Shown here: positions 1 through 10,238 of the stretch, in pieces
Position numbering within the stretch: the first letter of the stretch is position 1
Layout: every line of letters begins with the position of its first letter
From: a virus
Lineage: Duplodnaviria; Heunggongvirae; Uroviricota; Caudoviricetes
DNA: 35,037 nucleotides
IMG/VR virus record: IMGVR_UViG_2531839130_000012
Reading direction: 5' to 3' (one strand)
Notes under the pieces: model-generated
The model's input: only the letters and a program-made list of their open reading frames with translations
What the model was told of the DNA's origin: nothing
Databases searched by the model: none
Position numbers and translations under genes: made by a program

Positions 1-1032
1 TCAAAAACTTGCTATTGATGTTGGTAGTGTTGCCAGCGGATTAAACCGTAATGCAGTTTCCAGGTGATCCGGTGCTAGATGTGCGTAACGCATAGTCATT
101 TTTATGTCGTGATGTCCGAGGATTTTTTGCAAAGCAAGGATATTTCCACCCGACATCATAAAATGCGCCGCAAACGTATGGCGCAGAACGTGTGTCAGTT
201 GACCGCGAGGGAGCACGATAGACGTTTTTTCCATCACGGATAAAAATTGAAAATAGCAGTCTGTGAAGAAATTGAACCCATCGAGCGCCATGATCTCTTC
301 GTAAAGCTCTTTACTGATAGGGATGCTTCTGTTTTTCTTCCCCTTCGTTCTGACAAAGGTAATTCGGTATTTGGTCACCTGTGAGCGGGTAAGGTTTATT
401 GCTTCTCGCCAGCGTGCGCCTGTGCTTAAGCATATCTTGACTACCAGTGCCAGAATTGGGTCCTGACGTTTGCAATCATCCAGCAGTTCAACAATCTGCT
501 CATGGGTAAGCCATGCCATCTCTTTTTCTGCGATGGTGAATTTTCGCATGTTCTCCAGTGGGTTTGGATACGACCATTCGCCCAGGCGGGATAGTTCGCT
601 AAAAACACTACTTAGATAGCTTTGCTCCAGGTTAATGGTGACCGGGCTGGCCCCTTTCTTCCATTTCTCGCTGAAGTAGATCTCACCTGTCAGTCGTTTA
701 TCTCGATAATGGGCAAACATTTTAGATGTGAGATCGGTTGCAAGGGGATTGCCCAGAGCGTCAACCATCAGCAGCAATTTGTCATAGACATGCTGCCCAG
801 CAGTCAGAGATTTACCATGTAGTTTGAACCATAGCTCAACCACGTCTTTCAGGGTTCGACGATCTACTGATTCGCCCAGCCAGGGCTTTGCTTCGGTTTC
901 TTCCATCGTGTGACGCTCAAAAGCCAGTGCTTCGCCTTTGGTGGCGAATTGTTTACGCACACGACGCCCACTACGTCCGGCGGGGTAACATTCGCAAAGC
1001 CATTTTCCTGTGGTGAGTTTTCGTACTGCCAT
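1..1032 (-). CDS. int: Tyrosine integrase (P2/186 family)
   Basis: C-terminal catalytic region with HVLRHTFAAHFMM (HxxR box) and MTMRYAHLAP (catalytic Tyr); start at internal MAVRK Met preceded by GGAGGG Shine-Dalgarno on the minus strand; stop codon is bases 1-3. Confidence 0.9.
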   Translation of the reverse strand: MAVRKLTTGKWLCECYPAGRSGRRVRKQFATKGEALAFERHTMEETEAKPWLGESVDRRTLKDVVELWFKLHGKSLTAGQHVYDKLLLMVDALGNPLATDLTSKMFAHYRDKRLTGEIYFSEKWKKGASPVTINLEQSYLSSVFSELSRLGEWSYPNPLENMRKFTIAEKEMAWLTHEQIVELLDDCKRQDPILALVVKICLSTGARWREAINLTRSQVTKYRITFVRTKGKKNRSIPISKELYEEIMALDGFNFFTDCYFQFLSVMEKTSIVLPRGQLTHVLRHTFAAHFMMSGGNILALQKILGHHDIKMTMRYAHLAPDHLETALRFNPLATLPTSIASF

Positions 1033-1218
1033 AAAAAATGCCCTCCAATAGAGAGCATTTTTACTGTATGTATAACCAGTGTCAATGTATGAAATCTTGC
1101 GACCATACATCTCACTGAAGCCATAATGAAGTTGGCTATTTTTTGCTATGTGAGTATGTGACTTTTGCGGTTAGCCTGCGGCTCATTGTTATATTAGGCG
1201 CAGATATAAAAGCAAAAA

Positions 1219-1410
1219 TTATCGCGAGTTTTTAGTACAGATTTTTTTTGATTTACTAATAGTTCCATCATTGCAAACGAACTTTCCATCGGAGGTACAG
1301 TGAGAGACACCTCCCTTTTTCCCAGAACAAGGATAATTTTTAGCATAGGTAGTTAGTGGGTTTAATAACAAAGAGCATGATAAAACCACAAAAAATACCT
1401 TACCAAGCAT
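1219..1410 (-). CDS. Small secreted Cys-rich protein (63 aa; predicted signal peptide, 4 Cys in ~40-aa basic mature part), function unknown
   Basis: ORF directly downstream of cI on the same strand; strong GGGAGGA Shine-Dalgarno 5 nt before the ATG (plus-strand tttcctccc at 1413-1421); hydrophobic N-terminus [16 protein letters not shown]; AT-rich. Confidence 0.4.
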
Positions 1411-1425: not shown

Positions 1426-1995
1426 TTACCTAACGTACTTAATTGTTAAACTTATAATTTTTCCAATTATTTCAACATCTTCTATCTTGCACTCGAAGGA
1501 TCTGTTTCCACCTTCAACGAAGATTCTTCCACCGGGTAAACGAGTAATGTCGCGGATTGTTATTTCGCCATCAATACTTATTACCCATTTACCATCACGT
1601 ATATCATCAAATTCTTTATCACAAATAAATTCAGAATTGTTATCTGTGATGACAAAAGGTTTTTTAAACGTAGAGGGTAGAAATCCCTTATCAAAAATAT
1701 AAAAACCGTCTTCACGCAAGGCACCATCAGATAATACATATTTAGCAACTTCCATCGTATTTGTATTACCTGAAGTTTGCTTTGAACCATGTCCAGTTGT
1801 GAGCCAATTAAGCGAGGTGCCCGTTTCAAGGGCGCACTGGATTACCCATTCTGCTGGGAATGAGTCACGCATGTAGCGTGTAGCGAGTGTACTTTTAGAG
1901 ATTCCTAAATGATCGCACAACGCCTGTCGAGTTTTGAATCCATAAGCTTCTACCATGCGCTCTATAGCGCCTCGTCCGCCTTTCTCCAAATTCAT
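1426..1995 (-). CDS. cI: Phage 186 CI-type immunity repressor
   Basis: About 190 aa; N-terminal HTH region (AYGF...LCDHLGISKSTLATRY) and C-terminal domain resembling 186 CI; divergent from the Apl/cII operon; ATG at 1995 preceded by GGAG (the 1999-2001 GTG is the alternative start). Confidence 0.8.
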   Translation of the reverse strand: MNLEKGGRGAIERMVEAYGFKTRQALCDHLGISKSTLATRYMRDSFPAEWVIQCALETGTSLNWLTTGHGSKQTSGNTNTMEVAKYVLSDGALREDGFYIFDKGFLPSTFKKPFVITDNNSEFICDKEFDDIRDGKWVISIDGEITIRDITRLPGGRIFVEGGNRSFECKIEDVEIIGKIISLTIKYVR

Positions 1996-2019
1996 GGTCA
2001 CTCCAAGTGAACTTTTATC

Positions 2020-3925: not shown

Positions 3926-4779
3926 GCACCATCCTGAAATGGGCGGGAAATAAAACCGCCATTATGTCCGAACTGAAAAAACACCTTCCTGCTGGCCCGC
4001 GACTGGTTGAACCTTTCGCGGGTTCCTGTGCTGTGATGATGGAGACGGATTACCCCAGCTATCTGGTTGCGGATATTAATCCTGATTTAATCAACCTCTA
4101 TAAAAAGGTTGCCGCTGATTGTGAATCGTTTATATCTCGCGCCAGAGTTTTATTTGAGATCGCAAACAGGGAGGTGGCTTATTACAACATAAGGCAGGAG
4201 TTTAATTACTCCACTGAAATTACTGATTTCATGAAAGCGGTATATTTCCTGTATCTCAATCGTCACGGTTACCGTGGTTTATGTCGCTATAACAAGAGCG
4301 GGCATTTCAACATTCCCTACGGTAATTATAAAAATCCGTATTTCCCTGAAAAAGAAATTCGCGCATTTGCAGAAAAGGCCCAGCGAGCAACGTTTATCTG
4401 CGCCAGCTTTGATGAAACGCTGGCGATGTTGAAGGCGGGGGATGTGGTGTATTGCGATCCGCCGTATGACGGTACGTTTTCCGGCTATCACACTGACGGC
4501 TTCACTGAAGATGACCAGTATCACCTGGCATCTGTTCTTGAACATCGGTCATCAGAAGGACATCCAGTCATTGTTTCTAACAGTGACACATCCCTGATCC
4601 GTTCGCTGTATCGCAATTTTACTCACCACTACATCAAGGCAAAACGCAGCATCGGTGTGGCAGCTGGCGAGGGTAAATCAGCAACAGAAATCATTGCTGT
4701 TTCCGGGCCGCGCTGCTGGGTGGGATTTGATTATTCGCGTGGCGTGGATAGTTCTGCCGTGTACGGAGTACGTGCATGA
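3922..4779 (+). CDS. dam: DNA N6-adenine methyltransferase, Dam family
   Basis: Motif [10 protein letters not shown] and motif IV DPPY ([10 protein letters not shown]); starts [11 protein letters not shown]; GGAGG Shine-Dalgarno; stop overlaps the gene A start. Confidence 0.85.
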
Positions 4780-7190
4780 GTCATGCCGATATGAACAACT
4801 GCTGCGGCTTTAACGAGGCTGCCGCAGCATTCTCATGGAACAGCCCGAAAAAGGCCATTAACCCTTATCTGGACCCGGCGGAAGTTGCGCCGGTTTCTAC
4901 GCTTTCAAACCTGATCACTCTGTACGCTGCCGATAACGAGCAGGAACAGTTGCGCCGCGAGGCACTGAGTGATCAGGTCTGGGAGCGTTATTTCTTTAAT
5001 GAATCACGTGATCCTGTCCAGCGCGAAATGGAGCAGGATAAGCTCATTAGCCGGGCAAAGCTGGCGCATGAGCAGCAGCGTTTTAATTCAGACATGGTCA
5101 TTCTGGCGGACGTCAACGCCCAGCCTTCCCATATCAGCAAGCCGCTGATGCAACGTATTGAATACTTCAGCAGCCTGGGCAGGCCAAAGGCTTATTCCCG
5201 CTATTTACGTGAGACGATTAAGCCATGTCTGGAACGACTGGAGCATGTACGCGACAGTCAGCTATCTGCATCTTTTCGCTTTATGGCAAGCCATGAAGGG
5301 CTGGACGGCCTGCTGATCCTGCCTGAAATGAGTCAGGATCAGGTGAAACGCCTGTCCACCCTAGTAGCTGCGCATATGAGTATGTGCCTTGATGCAGCTT
5401 GTGGTGATTTGTATGCCACCGATGACGTTAAGCCAGAAGAAATCCGCAAGACATGGGAAAAGGTGGCAGCGGAAACCCTGCGTCTGGATGTCATCCCACC
5501 TGCGTTTGAGCAACTCCGTCGGAAAAGAAACCGCCGTAAACCCGTGCCCTATGAACTCATTCCGGGTTCGCTGGCGCGTATGTTGTGCGCCGACTGGTGG
5601 TATCGGAAATTATGGAAGATGCGTTGCGAATGGCGGGAAGAGCAGTTGCGCGCTGTTTGCCTGGTCAGCAAAAAAGCATCTCCTTATGTCAGCTATGAAG
5701 CCGTGATGCATAAACGTGAGCAGCGCCGTAAGTCGCTGGAGTTTTTCCGTTCTCATGAACTGGTGAACGAAGACGGCGACACGCTGGACATGGAGGATGT
5801 GGTAAACGCCAGCAGCAGCAACCCTGCGCATCGCCGCAATGAGATGATGGCCTGTGTTAAAGGTCTGGAGCTTATCGCGGAAATGCGCGGTGACTGCGCC
5901 GTTTTCTACACTATCACCTGTCCGTCGCGTTTCCATTCCACGCTAAATAACGGCAGACCAAACCCGACCTGGACAAACGCGACGGTAAGACAAAGCAGCG
6001 ATTATCTGGTCGGCATGTTTGCTGCATTTCGTAAGGCGATGCACAAAGCCGGGTTGCGCTGGTATGGCGTGCGGGTGGCTGAGCCGCATCATGATGGCAC
6101 AGTTCACTGGCACCTGTTGTGTTTCATGCGCAAAAAAGACCGCCGTGCCATCACTGCATTACTGCGTAAGTTTGCCATCCGTGAAGACCGCGAGGAGCTG
6201 GGCAATAACACTGGGCCGCGCTTTAAGTCTGAGTTGATTAACCCGCGCAAAGGAACGCCGACAAGCTATATCGCGAAATATATCAGTAAGAACATTGACG
6301 GTCGTGGTCTGGCTGGCGAGATCAGCAAGGAAACGGGTAAATCTCTGCGTGATAACGCTGAATACGTGAATGCCTGGGCGTCTCTGCATCGTGTTCAGCA
6401 ATTCCGCTTCTTTGGTATTCCGGGGCGTCAGGCTTACCGTGAACTTCGCTTGCTGGCTGGTCAGGCGGCAAGGCAACAGGGTGACAAAAAAGCAGGTGCG
6501 CCGGTACTGGATAACCCGCGTCTTGATGCCATTCTGGCTGCTGCTGATGCTGGTTGTTTTGCCACCTACATCATGAAGCAGGGCGGCGTACTGGTTCCCC
6601 GTAAATATCACCTCATCAGAACCGCTTATGAAATCAACGAAGAGCCGACCGCCTATGGCGATCACGGCATTCGTATTTATGGCATCTGGTCACCCATTGC
6701 AGAGGGCAAGATCTGCACTCATGCAGTGAAGTGGAAAATGGTTCGTAAAGCCGTTGACGTTCAGGAGGCGGCAGCCGACCAGGGCGCTTGCGCCCCTTGG
6801 ACTCGTGGCAATAACTGTCCCCTTGCTGAAAATTTGAACCAACAGGAGAAAGATAAATCAGCTGATGGGGACCCCAGAACGGACATTACCCGCATGGATG
6901 ACAAGGTGTTGCACGATTACCTGCACAGTATGAACAAAAAGGAGCGCCGGGAACTGGCTGCAAGGTTACGCCTGGTGAAACCGAAATGGCGTAGAGACTA
7001 CAAACAGCGAATTACAGACCATCAACGACAGCAGCTCGTCTATGAACTGAAGTCCAGAGGATTTGATGGCAGCGAGAAAGAGGTCGATTTACTCCTTCGC
7101 GGCGGCAGTATTCCGTCAGGAGCAGGCCTGCGTATCTTCTATCGGAACCAGCGTTTGCAGGAAGATGATAAGTGGCGGAACCTGTATTAA
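4776..7190 (+). CDS. A: Replication initiation endonuclease A (rolling-circle initiator, P2 gpA family)
   Basis: 804 aa; HUH-like VHWHLL motif and paired-tyrosine [10 protein letters not shown] motif; position after the early operon. Confidence 0.9.
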
Positions 7191-7259
7191 TTACGCTGGT
7201 TAACAATTCGTGCTCTTAATAATACCAGGCATATCAGGCTGATAAGCGTAAAAAAACGT

Positions 7260-7302
7260 TTTACATCAGTAAGATTATTATATACTGTAAACATAAACAG
7301 TG
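7260..7302 (+). promoter_or_regulatory. SOS promoter: -35 TTTACA (7260-7265), -10 TATACT (7281-7286), overlapping LexA box TACTGTAAACATAAACAGTG (7283-7302)
   Basis: CTGT-N8-ACAG core with 16/20 match to the LexA consensus TACTGTATATATATACAGTA, placed over the -10/+1 region about 45 nt upstream of the next ATG. Confidence 0.6.
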
Positions 7303-7343
7303 GTTATACATACAGTATTGCGTGTGGTGTCATAGGAGGAAAG

Positions 7344-7532
7344 ATGCAGGACTATTTTTTGGAGTCTTTGAAGCTCCAGCGCATTGATTTTTTTCTTAAG
7401 CTTGTAGCGGCTAGTGAGTGTAGTGATGAAGAGAAGGGGCTGGCTCTGCAGTGGGTTTCTGAATTGACTGATGAACTCATGGCAAAAATCAGAAGCCACG
7501 AATACAACCGCTCAATGGATGTCATCAACTGA
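7344..7532 (+). CDS. Small SOS-regulated protein (62 aa), possible Tum-like antirepressor N-terminal module
   Basis: Strong TAGGAGGA Shine-Dalgarno before ATG 7344; first ORF after the LexA box; same position as the 186 tum operon. Confidence 0.45.
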   Translation: MQDYFLESLKLQRIDFFLKLVAASECSDEEKGLALQWVSELTDELMAKIRSHEYNRSMDVIN

Positions 7533-7542
7533 GGTGACTTTT

Positions 7543-7776
7543 ATGCGCATTGAAATAATGATCGATAAAGAGCAGAAGATTAGCCAGTCTACCCTGGACG
7601 CCCTTGAATCCGAGCTTTACCGCAATCTGCGCCCCCTGTATCCCAAAACGGTAATCCGTATCCGTAAAGGTAGCTCTAACGGTGTGGAACTGACCGGACT
7701 GCAACTGGACGAAGAAAGAAAACAAGTGATGAAAATTATGCAGAAGGTGTGGGAAGACGACAGCTGGCTGCATTGA
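7543..7776 (+). CDS. DinI-family protein
   Basis: MRIEIMIDK...LDALESELYRNL...YP...KQVMKIMQKVWEDDSW aligns along its length with E. coli DinI (MRIEV..., ...WESADDW); GAGG Shine-Dalgarno before ATG 7543. Confidence 0.75.
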   Translation: MRIEIMIDKEQKISQSTLDALESELYRNLRPLYPKTVIRIRKGSSNGVELTGLQLDEERKQVMKIMQKVWEDDSWLH

Positions 7777-7830
7777 TTTTGTCAATAGACGCTTGTTTTT
7801 ACTAATCAAAAAGGGTTACATATGAGTGAG

Positions 7831-7863
7831 AGGCGATGTCAATCAGATATCGCCTTGTTTTTT
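7831..7863 (+). terminator. Rho-independent terminator-like hairpin (AGGCGAT / ATCGCCT) followed by TTGTTTTTT
   Basis: Read directly from the sequence downstream of the DinI-like gene. Confidence 0.45.
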
Positions 7864-7889
7864 GTCAAGAAAAGAATAATAGGCTAAAA

Positions 7890-8567
7890 ATGAAAATTAA
7901 TAACGTAGCGTTACCAATATCTCTGGCTGTAATCCTAACTGGTTGCGTGCCACATGCTTCTAACCGAAATATCACTGCTATTGAAGTGGTGAAGCCTGCT
8001 ATTGGGCAAAGTGCTACCGCCTACATGGGCGATCCCATTATCACATCTGCTACTGGATTTAAAACGGACGTACTAGAACTTGGTGCGGCTAATGGTGCAT
8101 TGTCTTCTATCGCTGCTGGTACATATTGCAGTGAGGGGAATGGAATTTACCGCAATTATCATAACCCTCAAGCTGTTGCGTTAAAAAATCTCTATGGGCA
8201 AATCGGTAACTATGTTGATTATGTTAGTTACGATGCTGCAAAAAATGAGATATCACCGCCAAATGGTACTTCTTATACTGCATCAGAAATTTCTATCAAA
8301 CGTGTTCCTGATGGGCTGTGTCGAGTTAGTAACTCATTGGTTAAGACTATCGAATACAATGGAAATGCAGGCGGTGTAATGAAGTTCACCTATCGTGAAT
8401 TTGCAAACGATATGGCTCGTGCAGCATTTACAACAGATTTTTCTGTAGATTCTAAGGGAAGTGACGTTATCGCTTACAAAGGTGCCAAGTTCAAAGTGAA
8501 CAAGGCTGATAACTCGTCTATTTCTTATACAATTATTTCTGGCTTTGACAAGACTGTCACGTTCTAG
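7890..8567 (+). CDS. Lipoprotein of unknown function (lipobox LTGC), cargo gene
   Basis: MKINNVALPISLAVILTGC signal with lipobox Cys; AT-rich; sits between the SOS operon and the cos-like site. Confidence 0.6.
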   Translation: MKINNVALPISLAVILTGCVPHASNRNITAIEVVKPAIGQSATAYMGDPIITSATGFKTDVLELGAANGALSSIAAGTYCSEGNGIYRNYHNPQAVALKNLYGQIGNYVDYVSYDAAKNEISPPNGTSYTASEISIKRVPDGLCRVSNSLVKTIEYNGNAGGVMKFTYREFANDMARAAFTTDFSVDSKGSDVIAYKGAKFKVNKADNSSISYTIISGFDKTVTF

Positions 8568-8671
8568 GTTTCACGCTTGCTGAGTATGTTACGATTTTGC
8601 ACATTCTGCATAAACGCGCATGTCTATGCTGCATGAGATCGCATGATCGTTTGAGGATCTTTTGTGTTAAG

Positions 8672-8698
8672 GCCCGCCAGTTCTGGCGGGCTTTTGCG
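8672..8698 (+). terminator. Rho-independent terminator (GCCCGCCAG ttc TGGCGGGC then TTTTG)
   Basis: Perfect GC-rich stem plus T-run downstream of the lipoprotein gene. Confidence 0.6.
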
Positions 8699-8740
8699 TA
8701 GATCATGCAGGTGCATGAAAACCACTACATAAAGCGGGCA

Positions 8741-8759
8741 GGCGTGGCGGGGATACGAG
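8741..8759. other. Candidate cos (cohesive-end) site, GGCGTGGCGGGGA...
   Basis: 13/13 identity to the start of the 19-nt P2/186 cohesive-end sequence as I recall it (GGCG[A/T]GGCGGGGAAAGCA...); location between gene A and the portal gene matches P2/186. Confidence 0.4.
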
Positions 8760-8840
8760 CGCGCGGATGAGTAATCTATACCATCATCTTGATAAAAGTA
8801 TTAAAAATGGTAAATTTAGCAAGCTACATATTAAAGGAAA

Positions 8841-10238
8841 ATGAAGATGTATGAAGTAATTGATATATCAGCGCAGGAAATTAAGGCGTTGTTAAACACT
8901 ACTGAAGATCATTTCAATGATTTTAAAAGTAAGCAAATAGCGCCTAATAAATTACAAGAAACTTTTGTAGCATTTGCAAATGCTGATGGCGGTAATATTT
9001 ATATTGGCATAGAGGATGCAGCTTCGGGGAGAGAGCGTATATCTGGTTTCAATGAGCCAGAGGAAGCGAATGCTATTATTTCGACCTTATTGGAAAATAC
9101 TAATCCAGCTGTTGAGAATGTTGAGGTGGAATATTTAAGAACACCTTCCAATGGATTGATTTTACATGTGGATATACCAAAAAGCCCCAAAGTTCATTAC
9201 ACGGCCTCTGGCGATTGCTTTATAAGAGCTAACGCGCAAAAATTAAAAATAAAAGGTGAGCGAATTACTCAGCTTTCCTATTCTAAAGGCGCAGAACCTT
9301 ATGAAAAAAAAGCAGTGGATATAGTTGAAGTAGAAGATATTCTTGAAAGTGAATATTATTCTGATTATTTACGTAGAATAGGAACGACTCAGTCACCGAG
9401 AGTTTTTTTAAAAAAACAACGACTGTTAACTAAGAAAGATGGTGAATTTGTCCCGAATGTAGGCTGTGTTTTACTATTTGATGAAGAGCCTCAAGGATGT
9501 TTAGATACTCGATGTGCTGTAAAAGTATATCGGCTTAGAACAACTGAAGCAGAGTACAAACGTGAACAATTACAGGAAGATCCTGTAACGATTGAGGGGC
9601 CACTTGAAGTGGTTATTTTAAATACAATAGCAAAAGTAAAAGAATATGTTGATGGAGCATCATTCAAAGACGGCGAAAATCTAGTAAAACTTAGCTATCC
9701 TGCAGAAGCATTGAAGGAAATATTAGTTAATGCTGTTATTCATAGAGATTACAGCCAAAAGGATGATGTGCACGTAAAAGTTTATGACAACCGGATTGAA
9801 GTTCAAAGTCCAGGCAGATTGCCTGGATACATGACTATTAATAATTTATATGAAGAGCGGTTTTCTCGTAATCCAAATTTAGTGCGTTTGTTGCATAAAC
9901 TTCCCAATCCAGTGAACCATGATATTGGTGAGGGGCTTGATACTGCAAAAAATGAATTGCGTAAGGCCGGGTTGGTAGCCCCGGTATTTGAAGAAAGGGG
10001 CAATAATTTTGTTGTAATAGTTAAGCATCAAACAATAGCCTCAATTGAGGATGTGATTATTAATTATTTTAAAGAAAATCCAACGGGACAGCTCACAAAT
10101 AAGTTGGTTAGACAATTAAGTGGCGAAGATGACCTTCAAAAGGTTAAAAAGGCATTGCAAAAGTTAAGGGAGGAGGGCGTAATAAAACCATTAGATCCTA
10201 ACGCGAATCCTTTCAAATTTAAATATATTAAAGCTTAA
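8841..10238 (+). CDS. Schlafen-like/AlbA_2 DNA-binding domain + HATPase_c_4-like domain + C-terminal winged-helix protein (465 aa); candidate defence/cargo gene
   Basis: N-terminal FNDFKSK...VAFANADGGNIYIGIED (AlbA_2/Schlafen signature); central EALKEILVNAVIHRDYS...VKVYDNRIEVQSPGRLP (HATPase_c_4 signature); C-terminal LTNKLVRQLSGEDDLQKVKKALQKLREEGVI (wHTH-like); strongly AT-rich; flanked by terminators; the start may be ATG 8847 rather than 8841. Confidence 0.7.
   Translation: MKMYEVIDISAQEIKALLNTTEDHFNDFKSKQIAPNKLQETFVAFANADGGNIYIGIEDAASGRERISGFNEPEEANAIISTLLENTNPAVENVEVEYLRTPSNGLILHVDIPKSPKVHYTASGDCFIRANAQKLKIKGERITQLSYSKGAEPYEKKAVDIVEVEDILESEYYSDYLRRIGTTQSPRVFLKKQRLLTKKDGEFVPNVGCVLLFDEEPQGCLDTRCAVKVYRLRTTEAEYKREQLQEDPVTIEGPLEVVILNTIAKVKEYVDGASFKDGENLVKLSYPAEALKEILVNAVIHRDYSQKDDVHVKVYDNRIEVQSPGRLPGYMTINNLYEERFSRNPNLVRLLHKLPNPVNHDIGEGLDTAKNELRKAGLVAPVFEERGNNFVVIVKHQTIASIEDVIINYFKENPTGQLTNKLVRQLSGEDDLQKVKKALQKLREEGVIKPLDPNANPFKFKYIKA

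Follow-up and report, generated by a model that had tools for sequence, protein, structure and literature searches.

The closest described counterparts of the locus analyzed here are found in phages 186, PSP3, and Fels-2. In 186, Tum binds the CI repressor and prevents operator binding (Shearwin 1998, as cited in PMC3121763), and the 186 record carries the note "inhibits CI DNA binding" on tum. In Fels-2 and PSP3, a stop codon divides tum into two parts (PMC3121763). In PSP3, the upstream gene is described as the antirepressor, an activity credited solely to a personal communication, and the downstream gene as a DinI homologue (PMC3121763); the PSP3 record annotates tumA with "UV induction of prophage" and, for tumB, notes a similarity to dinI and to the 3' end of 186 tum. 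Fels-2 STM2727 was upregulated 5.5- to 14.8-fold with the mutagen MX, and all three genes of the operon STM2726-2728 shifted in the same direction (PMC2225428). According to the title of a further study (Bunny, Liu & Roth 2002, cited in PMC3121763), the Fels-2 prophage is the source of the lethal lexA-null phenotype. Two other systems are of relevance, namely (i) the Gifsy antirepressors, which work across heteroimmune repressors (PMC3121763), and (ii) the colicin operons, in which dual boxes take two LexA dimers and thereby confer very tight repression (PMC2994835).

Here we describe a locus which is very probably the SOS-induction operon of a Fels-2/186-like prophage, composed of a LexA-repressed bicistron encoding an antirepressor and a DinI-like protein. 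The two-gene layout has already been described for Fels-2 and PSP3, and its occurrence here is real but ordinary.

Locus organization and prophage setting

The window, by which we mean the entire stretch of 35,037 nucleotides analyzed, derives from a Fels-2/186-like prophage of the Peduoviridae, the host of which is most likely E. coli. Gene order is that of 186, PSP3, and Fels-2. CI is encoded at 1426-2001 (Phage_CI_repr and Phage_CI_C domains, no peptidase domain, 32% identical to 186 CI), CII carries Phage_CP76, and the Apl-like ORF in the apl position (2121-2342) had no Pfam match. The module lies directly 3' of gene A (gpA, 4776-7190; Pfam Phage_GPA, 4.6e-128). Positions 7200-7800 share 97.2% identity with Fels-2 and 98% with many Klebsiella P2-like phages, and the region is present in 1125 of the 5426 complete E. 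coli genomes examined. The features of the module are as follows.

7260-7265, plus strand: -35 hexamer TTTACA of a p95-like promoter, 17 nt 5' of TACTGT
7283-7288, plus strand: putative -10 hexamer TACTGT, assigned from the layout of 186 p95; coincides with nt 1-6 of LexA box 1
7283-7302, plus strand: LexA box 1, TACTGTAAACATAAACAGTG, 16/20 matches to the consensus TACTGTATATATATACAGTA
7298-7317, plus strand: predicted LexA box 2, CAGTGGTTATACATACAGTA, 15/20 matches; shares 5 bp with box 1, left half-site degenerate
7334-7339, plus strand: Shine-Dalgarno AGGAGG of the small ORF; motif ataGGAGGgaa(a/g)ATG conserved among loci
7344-7532, plus strand: tumA-like gene, 62 aa, Tum N-terminal homologue and predicted CI antirepressor; ATG 7344, TGA 7530-7532
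7531-7537, plus strand: Shine-Dalgarno GAGGTGA for the DinI-like gene; shares bases with the tumA stop codon
7543-7776, plus strand: tumB or DinI-like gene, 77 aa, counterpart of 186 Tum72 (Pfam DinI, 6.6e-23); ATG 7543, TGA 7774-7776
7830-7866, plus strand: terminator-like hairpin and T run, an 11-bp stem and then GTTTTTTGTC; located where 186 has t95a

A sequence-only reading of this DNA had proposed a 186 tum-type, LexA-controlled induction module in the form of two ORFs. This description is borne out, given that both parts of 186 Tum are matched, the lower ORF by BLASTP and the upper by profiles. The individual elements it reported, namely the 16/20 LexA box, the 62-aa ORF with its strong Shine-Dalgarno, and the second Shine-Dalgarno ahead of a clear DinI homologue, are likewise all present. 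Its placement of the box over the -10 region of a sigma70-like promoter is correct with respect to the overlap at TACTGT, while the term sigma70-like holds only by way of the 186 analogy and conservation.

The small ORF and its relationship to Tum

The 62-aa ORF is a real gene under strong purifying selection, with a median dN/dS of 0.061 compared with 1.3 and 2.1 for the off-frame controls, and is 98% identical to Fels-2 STM2728. Pairwise BLASTP gave no alignment between the 62-aa ORF and either 186 Tum or PSP3 TumA, nor between PSP3 TumA and 186 Tum. Short length and wide divergence put these proteins beyond the reach of pairwise searches, which made profiles necessary. A narrow profile, drawn from members sharing more than 80% identity, reached an hhalign probability of just 39% and was replaced by a broad one. 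With the latter, the 62-aa ORF aligned with the 186 Tum N-terminal family at a probability of 97% (P 1.2e-10; columns 4-44 to columns 4-44), and hmmsearch returned 33 bits for the same link. The outcome that the sequence-only reading had named as evidence against its proposal, i.e. 186 tum aligning to only one of the two ORFs, was thus obtained with pairwise BLASTP but not with profiles.

PHROG assignments point in the same direction. The 62-aa ORF matches PHROG 698, which the N-terminal part of 186 Tum matches independently (5.9e-6), and PHROGs 8554 and 1993 are matched by both; PHROG 1993 is the PSP3 TumA family, to which the 62-aa ORF is weakly related in direct comparison (hhalign P 1e-3). 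At the level of profiles, the 62-aa ORF is a homologue of 186 Tum residues 4-44, and this link justifies naming the gene. The AF2 model of the protein is a helical hairpin (pLDDT 88.9), for which Foldseek retrieved generic hairpins alone from the PDB (all E >1), and a PDB sequence search with the small-ORF family profile found nothing.

The small-ORF family comprises 85 cluster representatives (50% identity; 1.84 billion proteins). One candidate, P0408, a 1205-aa protein with 10 matched stretches, was rejected as a false positive and is a NACHT/HEAT-repeat protein. The small ORF is the constant component of the module. The DinI-like gene is missing in about 12 of 33 genome loci; at loci where it was lost or never present, the small ORF and the LexA box persist, and the small ORF is also found alone in ESSI-2-type phages.

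The best surviving alternative accepts LexA control of the operon but gives the 62-aa protein some other SOS-linked role in place of CI antirepression, such that only the DinI-like part is related to tum function. We regard this as improbable. It is consistent with the lack of any Pfam or NCBIfam family for the 62-aa protein, the PHROG of which is listed as having unknown function, and with the distribution of CI types. TumA and CI genes are both present at 27 loci. Co-variation of TumA type with the whole CI protein was looked for and not found. TumA proteins remain 70-98% identical, whereas the accompanying CIs share 30-60% identity, with the exception of one locus (L004) at 87%. The window and Fels-2 follow the same pattern, their CIs being 39% identical while their small ORFs are 98% identical, and at another locus (L024) the TumA type of the window is paired with a 186-like CI.

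Several observations nevertheless argue against this alternative: (i) the profile homology is collinear and extends to the N-terminal part of Tum, which is absent from Tum72, as well as to the PSP3 TumA family, (ii) the 62-aa ORF occupies the same genomic slot behind the same type of promoter, (iii) wherever CI could be located, TumA is accompanied by a 186-type CI without a self-cleavage domain, and (iv) as noted above, ORF and LexA box are kept together where no DinI-like gene exists. Furthermore, the N-terminal DNA-binding domain of CI is conserved far above the C-terminal domain (median 62% vs 35%) and is a plausible common target; TumA type is associated with this domain alone, with one exception. 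The conservation of TumA beside divergent CIs sharing an N-domain signature suggests that TumA may recognize the CI DNA-binding domain. We thus continue to favor an antirepressor role for the 62-aa protein. That it acts on the CI of the same prophage is assumed from homology.

The DinI-like gene and the junction between the two cistrons

The downstream ORF matches Pfam DinI (PF06183) over profile positions 1-63 of 63 with 81.3 bits (cut-off 24.2). It aligns with 186 Tum residues 71-145 at 41% identity, its Met1 falling on the internal GTG start of Tum72, and is 78% identical to PSP3 TumB; the match to the E. coli DinI structure 1GHH covers residues 1-75 (2.7e-6). The NCBIfam equivalog for the chromosomal DinI orthologue, NF007893, has a cut-off of 111 bits, which neither the DinI-like ORF (42.7) nor 186 Tum (44.5) reached. 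By these comparisons, the 77-aa protein is best classed as a phage DinI-like paralogue, and host dinI is ruled out.

The sequence-only reading had noted that the two ORFs together approach the length of 186 Tum, and this is correct: the 433-nt span equals 144 codons (62 + 77 = 139 codons within the ORFs themselves), compared with 146 for 186 Tum. In a second alternative, the locus would be a tum that a frameshift or nonsense mutation has recently disrupted, or a single gene yielding a fused Tum via programmed frameshifting or readthrough. A single indel can indeed fuse the frames, as the earlier reading had raised: deletion of one nucleotide in the TGA (T7530 or A7532) gives an in-frame 143-aa protein, the DinI frame is open from 7468, and 186 itself encodes a fused Tum of 146 aa. 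The fusion is, in this case, arithmetic and not history. The two cistrons are parted by the TGA and 10 nt, unlike the single polypeptide of about 146 aa encoded in 186. Across 33 related loci, the gap from stop to ATG is 9, 10, 11, or 12 nt, so that all three relative frames (0, +1, +2) occur, and the tumA stop codon may be TGA, TAG, or TAA. Inspection of the junction by eye revealed no conserved frame relation or slippery site.

Each cistron has a Shine-Dalgarno of its own, and a G-rich one follows the tumA stop in every locus that keeps the DinI-like gene. The two-gene arrangement is kept in Fels-2, PSP3, and the 1125 E. coli genomes, none of the 85 small-ORF cluster representatives is fused to DinI, and 186-type Tum-N homologues are likewise mostly stand-alone proteins of 63-91 aa. 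This second alternative is already largely refuted and we consider it very unlikely. The locus is a natural bicistron, with tumA and tumB split as in PSP3 and Fels-2. Consequently, where the sequence-only reading left a choice between a split or frameshifted tum and a naturally bipartite antirepressor, the natural two-part arrangement stands, and the split or frameshifted origin does not, given the variable gaps and the separate Shine-Dalgarno and start of each gene. The notion that both parts make up the antirepressor also falls, given the constancy of the small ORF and the frequent absence of the DinI-like gene.

A hairpin at 7521-7538 covers the tumA stop and the second Shine-Dalgarno and appeared terminator-like in the scan. 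It was considered as a translational-coupling or attenuator device and set aside as incidental; its z value is -1.5 to -2, and it is present in the window, Fels-2, and L004 only, being missing at other loci. An Rfam scan of 7000-8900 gave no matches. The gene downstream of the operon, at 7890-8567 (243/225-aa), is no homologue of 186 orf97 despite their equal annotated length.

Promoter and LexA operator

LexA box 1 is the single occurrence of CTGT-N8-ACAG in the 35-kb window. Given that 0.46 occurrences per window are expected by chance, and that 35% of shuffles contained at least one, the case for the box rests on its position and conservation and not on its count. A CTG-N10-CAG box lies 5' of the small ORF in 35 of 36 related loci, and TT[TGC]ACA is found 17-18 nt upstream of it in 29 of the 36. 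In 35 of the 36 loci, the box is conserved together with its distances from TTTACA and from the ATG, although the surrounding sequence varies between loci. The sole locus without the box (L034) also has a truncated ORF.

Positions 7260-7288 can be regarded as a sigma70-like promoter on the basis of this conservation and of their likeness to 186 p95, in which TTCACA is followed after 18 nt by a TACTGT annotated as the first 6 nt of the LexA site. A generic sigma-70 scan did not call the tumA promoter, because its -10 hexamer matches TATAAT at only 3 of 6 positions.

A second LexA-box-like element (7298-7317), not mentioned in the sequence-only reading, overlaps the first and recurs at the identical +15 offset in 22 of 36 loci. 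Positions 7278-7319 align with Col plasmid promoters that lie approximately 40 nt 5' of bacteriocin genes of the colicin E1-like and cloacin types. In its sequence, the operator is a colicin-type pair of overlapping SOS boxes, both of which are predicted to be filled by LexA.

A third alternative, in which the box arises by chance and the genes, as the tail of an early lytic operon, are expressed by readthrough from gene A, draws on the chance frequency of the motif and the uncalled promoter, but is refuted for practical purposes and next to impossible in our estimate in view of the conserved box geometry, the joint loss of box and intact ORF at L034, the alignment with colicin and cloacin SOS operators, and the induction of the Fels-2 genes along with SOS genes.

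Proposed mechanism

On the basis of the above, induction of the prophage probably proceeds as follows. In the undamaged cell, LexA would occupy the overlapping boxes over the -10 and start region and keep the operon off. Upon DNA damage, RecA-stimulated self-cleavage of LexA would free the promoter and permit synthesis of the bicistronic mRNA. The 62-aa helical-hairpin protein would then bind the 186-type CI, which has no self-cleavage domain, and prevent it from binding its operators, allowing the lytic promoter to fire. The DinI-like protein would modulate RecA filament activity and thereby tune the SOS signal in an accessory role. SOS- and LexA-dependent expression of the operon in this prophage is presumed from the near-identical Fels-2 locus.

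Significance

The module decides when common E. coli, Salmonella, and Klebsiella prophages exit lysogeny after DNA damage, including damage caused by antibiotics. Its biology is established for 186 and Fels-2, and the mechanism is not new. The practical value of the present analysis lies in annotation: RefSeq, Pfam, NCBIfam, and PHROGs list the 62-aa gene as a "hypothetical protein" or under "unknown function", although it is probably what triggers induction in 1125 of the 5426 complete E. coli genomes. Two smaller aspects extend past the initial observation, namely the colicin-type double SOS box, which bears on induction thresholds, and the conservation of the antirepressor across divergent CIs, which bears on crosstalk.

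These aspects can be combined into a joint reading in which the Fels-2-type TumA is of broad specificity and supports heteroimmune crosstalk, the double operator sets a threshold, and PHROGs 698, 8554, and 1993 belong with the N-terminal part of 189 to an antirepressor superfamily. We put this forward tentatively, as a possibility that is on balance more apt to fail than to hold. If true, a single TumA, once switched on by the SOS response, could induce a number of heteroimmune P2-like prophages residing in one cell, in a manner resembling Gifsy crosstalk, and extensive DNA damage would be required to release this shared trigger from its colicin-type double LexA operator. If true, the four PHROG groups would also form one superfamily that at present has no name in roughly one in five E. 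coli genomes, three of the PHROGs being listed as "unknown function".

Comparison with known systems

Fels-2 is the nearest relative. Its record annotates the two CDS (STM2728 and STM2727/STM2726.1), its DinI-like protein is 100% identical to that of the window, and its promoter and dual operator are identical in design. The operon likewise follows gene A and precedes a lipoprotein-like gene, but the cargo gene situated ahead of portal gene Q, past the operon, is not the one present in Fels-2. PSP3 shares the two cistrons after gene A and a LexA box beginning at the -10, and differs in having one LexA box instead of two, a TumA belonging to PHROG 1993 instead of 698, and a CI that is a 286-aa variant.

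In 186, the N-terminal antirepressor and C-terminal DinI-like parts are homologous to the two ORFs, and the DinI-like part is also made alone as Tum72 from an internal Shine-Dalgarno and a GTG that aligns with ATG 7543. Both operons have a terminator behind them, that of 186 being the partial terminator t95a. Differences include the fusion of both parts in one polypeptide, the presence of one LexA box as opposed to two, and a downstream gene, orf97, unrelated to that at 7890-8567.

Outside of this group, the colicin and cloacin operators (Lu & Chak 1996; PMC2994835) align base for base with 7283-7317 (TACTGT...CAGTGGTTATA..TACAGTA), although there they control a bacteriocin and here, where binding of two LexA dimers is a prediction, a prophage induction switch. 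The Gifsy dinI-gfoA/gfhA operons (Lemire et al. 2011, PMC3121763) are also LexA-repressed and combine a small antirepressor with a DinI homologue; they differ in that dinI comes first, reversing the gene order, and in that they belong to lambdoid phages and address another repressor family.

Prophage Layout and Promoter Architecture

The window is a P2/186-like prophage, and its layout, together with the elements of the tumA-tumB region, is listed below. The LexA box, the promoter and both open reading frames (ORFs) described in the sequence-only reading were recovered at the positions it had assigned to them.

Features of the prophage and of the tumA-tumB operon (window positions)
1-1110, minus strand: integrase
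1426-2001, minus strand: 186-type CI repressor (Pfam Phage_CI_repr and Phage_CI_C)
apl position: Apl-like ORF, named by position, without a family match
after the Apl-like ORF: CII gene
after the CII gene: Dam-like methylase ORF, named from the annotation at the same position in Fels-2
4776-7190: replication gene A, directly before the tumA-tumB region
7260-7265: putative -35 hexamer TTTACA, 17 nt before TACTGT
7283-7288: putative -10 hexamer TACTGT, assigned on the precedent of 186 p95
7283-7302: LexA box 1, TACTGTAAACATAAACAGTG, 16/20
7298-7317: candidate LexA box 2, CAGTGGTTATACATACAGTA, 15/20, 5-bp overlap with box 1
7334-7339: Shine-Dalgarno AGGAGG, before the 62-codon ORF
7344-7532: 62-codon ORF (tumA-like)
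overlapping the TGA of the 62-codon ORF: Shine-Dalgarno GAGGTGA, before the 77-codon ORF
7543-7776: 77-codon DinI-like ORF (tumB)
7830-7866: hairpin and T run
between the tumA-tumB region and gene Q: two cargo genes
last in order, minus strand: portal gene Q

The CTGT-N8-ACAG core of box 1 occurs once in the window against ~0.5 copies expected by chance, so that the count by itself is no proof; the case for the LexA box is carried by context and conservation. Conservation was assessed in Fels-2, two ESSI-2-type phages, and 33 loci from different Enterobacterales species, all with a homologue of the 62-aa ORF. Of the 36 (window included), 35 have a CTG-N10-CAG box before the small ORF, and 29 have TT[TGC]ACA at a distance of 17-18 nt on the upstream side of the box, while the sequence flanking the box varies from locus to locus. 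The sole box-less locus (Siccibacter turicensis, L034; 9900-10180) is a decayed copy, in which only 20 codons of the tumA-like ORF are left, so that box and ORF have decayed together.

A generic sigma-70 scan called no promoter at 7260-7288 because TACTGT matches TATAAT at only 3/6 positions; the assignment is therefore based on what is annotated in 186. The annotated 186 promoter p95 consists of TTCACA, 18 nt, and TACTGT, the -10 hexamer being bases 1-6 of its LexA site. The window has this same geometry, and by analogy TTTACA-17 nt-TACTGT is the putative promoter of the operon.

Boxes 1 and 2 (7283-7317) are offset by 15 bp and have CAGTG in common, and 22 of 36 tumA-like loci have a box 2 with this offset. 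Matches to the stretch 7278-7319 occur in ~700 small plasmids of the Col type; in two that were inspected, the match lies ~40 nt upstream of a cloacin-type or colicin E1-like bacteriocin gene, and the window operator aligns base for base with both operators. The operator is double and colicin-type, with box 2 a candidate LexA site, whereas those of 186 and PSP3 have one LexA box each. If the predicted box 2 is bound by LexA, the switch would be tighter and would fire later, which would suit a decision that is lethal.

Relationship of the Two ORFs to 186 Tum

The product of the 77-codon ORF is a DinI-family protein over its full length (Pfam 6.6e-23) and aligns with E. coli DinI of known structure (1GHH). 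It is 41% identical to residues 71-145 of 186 Tum, and its Met1 aligns exactly with the GTG annotated in the 186 record as the start of Tum72, a truncated product, which in 186 is preceded by an internal AAGGAGG.

BLASTP of the 62-aa ORF revealed no similarity to either 186 Tum or PSP3 TumA. At this level 186 tum matched one ORF only, a result that the sequence-only reading had held to speak against a tum-type module, but profile comparisons overturned it. A profile of close relatives, searched against 1.84 billion cluster representatives, found 85 members of the family, nearly all stand-alone proteins of 35-100 aa. A broad profile of 44 diverse members is collinear with the 186 Tum N-terminal family (columns 4-44 in both; hhalign probability 97%, P 1.2e-10), and the HMM of the 62-aa family scores 186 Tum at 33 bits. 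The window ORF matches PHROGs 698 (1e-37), 8554 (1e-8), and 1993 (2e-3), the 186 Tum N-terminus matches 1993 (1.5e-23), 8554 (3e-12), and 698 (5.9e-6), and PSP3 TumA matches 1993; these matches agree independently with the profile alignment. The common core consists of a hydrophobic helix, a turn in which a Cys is conserved, and a helix of motif [IL]-A-[LI]-x-[WL]-[IV]-[AS]-E-[LI], and an AlphaFold2 model of the 62-aa protein is a two-helix hairpin (pLDDT 88.9). It appears that PHROGs 698, 8554, and 1993 form one Tum-N/TumA superfamily with positions 1-70 of PHROG 189. No Pfam or NCBIfam family was found for the 62-aa protein, which RefSeq labels "hypothetical protein" in E. coli genomes and which, as PHROG 698, is listed under "unknown function". 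Given that the DinI-like ORF corresponds to Tum 71-145 and the 62-aa ORF to the Tum N-terminus, each half of Tum has a counterpart in the window.

A Natural Bicistron

Two forms of the module had been proposed, namely a split or frameshifted tum and a naturally bipartite one. Deletion of T7530 or A7532 would fuse the ORFs into a 143-aa protein, but this single-base fusion has no evolutionary meaning. Among related loci the gap from stop to ATG is 9, 10, 11, or 12 nt, which puts the DinI-like gene in any of the three frames (0, +1, or +2) with respect to the small ORF, whose stop codon is TGA, TAG, or TAA and is always followed by a G-rich Shine-Dalgarno. Purifying selection on the small ORF is strong (median dN/dS 0.061 over 423 pairs, versus 1.3 and 2.1 in the other two frames of the same DNA). 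This ORF occurs with its LexA box but without a DinI-like gene in ~12 of 33 loci and in ESSI-2-type phages, the DinI-like gene is decayed in two loci, and no fusion to DinI was found among the 85 family members. This combination of variable gap, frame and stop codon, low dN/dS, stand-alone small ORFs, and absence of DinI fusions identifies a natural bicistron rather than a broken gene. Homologues of the 186 Tum N-terminus are mostly stand-alone too (63-91 aa), and fused 186 tum retains an internal ribosome-binding site and start codon; the fused gene looks like the derived state.

A 6-bp hairpin (7521-7538) spanning the tumA stop and the DinI-like Shine-Dalgarno, followed by TTTTAT, is restricted to the window, Fels-2, and one Enterobacterales locus (L004), and was not significant against shuffles.

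Pairing of TumA with CI

The window and Fels-2 have TumA proteins that are 98% identical and CI repressors that are 39% identical. Across loci, TumA is 70-97% identical, while CIs are 30-60% identical to that of the window, L004 (87%) excepted, and no co-variation of TumA with whole CI was seen across the loci compared. Within the CIs of TumA loci, median pairwise identity is 62% for the N-terminal helix-turn-helix domain versus 35% for the C-terminal domain, and the N-domain has the signature RQ.LC.HL.VS.STMANR..RD.FPA.W, which is absent from 186 CI. These sequences suggest that the N-domain may be the target of TumA and that heteroimmune prophages may be able to cross-induce one another. The sole exception to the association of tumA type with this signature is a Pantoea stewartii prophage (L024; 3204-3725, 10001-10180), which has both a Fels-2-type tumA (85% identical) and a CI very like that of 186, with an N-domain only 36% identical to that of the window.

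Neighbouring Genes

A lipoprotein-like gene (7890-8567, plus strand; PHROG 1353, unknown function), whose signal peptide includes an LTGC lipobox, follows the terminator and has its own promoter-like site (7862-7891). It is a homologue of Fels-2 STM2726, which PMC2225428 groups with STM2727/2728 in one operon, with all three genes rising under MX; it is unrelated to 186 orf97, though their annotated lengths are equal. The protein encoded at 8841-10238 (plus strand; 465 aa; PHROG 12156, "DNA helicase") combines Schlafen AlbA_2 and HATPase_c_4 domains and partially matches the PADLOC models for pAgo and Aga (SIR2-PNTD). Its gene lies between the tum operon and portal gene Q, a slot filled by another gene (STM2723.1) in Fels-2, and may be cargo for defence against phages, at a locus that varies within the P2 family. 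Between integrase and cI, a 63-aa ORF (1219-1410, minus strand) with a signal-peptide-like N-terminus and several cysteines occupies the slot of a DUF2511 gene in PSP3 and may be a moron.

Proposed Mechanism and Comparison with Known Phages

The window CI is 32% identical to 186 CI and has the Pfam domains Phage_CI_repr and Phage_CI_C but no peptidase domain. Most likely, LexA cleavage would free the operon promoter, the 62-aa TumA-like protein would bind the non-cleavable 186-type CI and block its DNA binding, and the DinI-like protein would modulate RecA filament activity, as the 186 record notes for Tum72; binding of TumA to the CI of its own prophage is what we infer here. Literature on the near-identical Fels-2 locus supports this functional reading. 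In a microarray of a Fels-2 lysogen, the mutagen MX induced STM2727 5.5- to 14.8-fold alongside recN, sulA, umuD, and dinI, with STM2726-2728 all shifted in the same direction (PMC2225428), and the title of Bunny, Liu & Roth 2002 (cited in PMC3121763) names the Fels-2 prophage as the cause of the lethal phenotype of lexA-null Salmonella.

The region 7200-7800 (601 bases) matches Salmonella phage Fels-2 at 97.2% identity, many Klebsiella P2-like phages at 98%, and prophages of 1125 of 5426 complete E. coli genomes at up to 99.8%; these records annotate the pair as "hypothetical protein" and "DinI-like family protein". What the present analysis adds is grounds for naming a gene still listed as hypothetical in databases, the double operator of colicin type, and the pattern of a conserved antirepressor with a divergent repressor. 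The module itself is a Fels-2/PSP3-type tumA-tumB operon, already described: Lemire et al. (PMC3121763) report that a stop codon divides tum into two in Fels-2 and PSP3, the Fels-2 record shows this pair of CDS (STM2728, STM2726.1) after the gpA gene, and the PSP3 record has, in the same place, tumA ("similar to 5' end 186 tum; UV induction of prophage") and tumB ("similar to dinI and 3' end of 186 tum").
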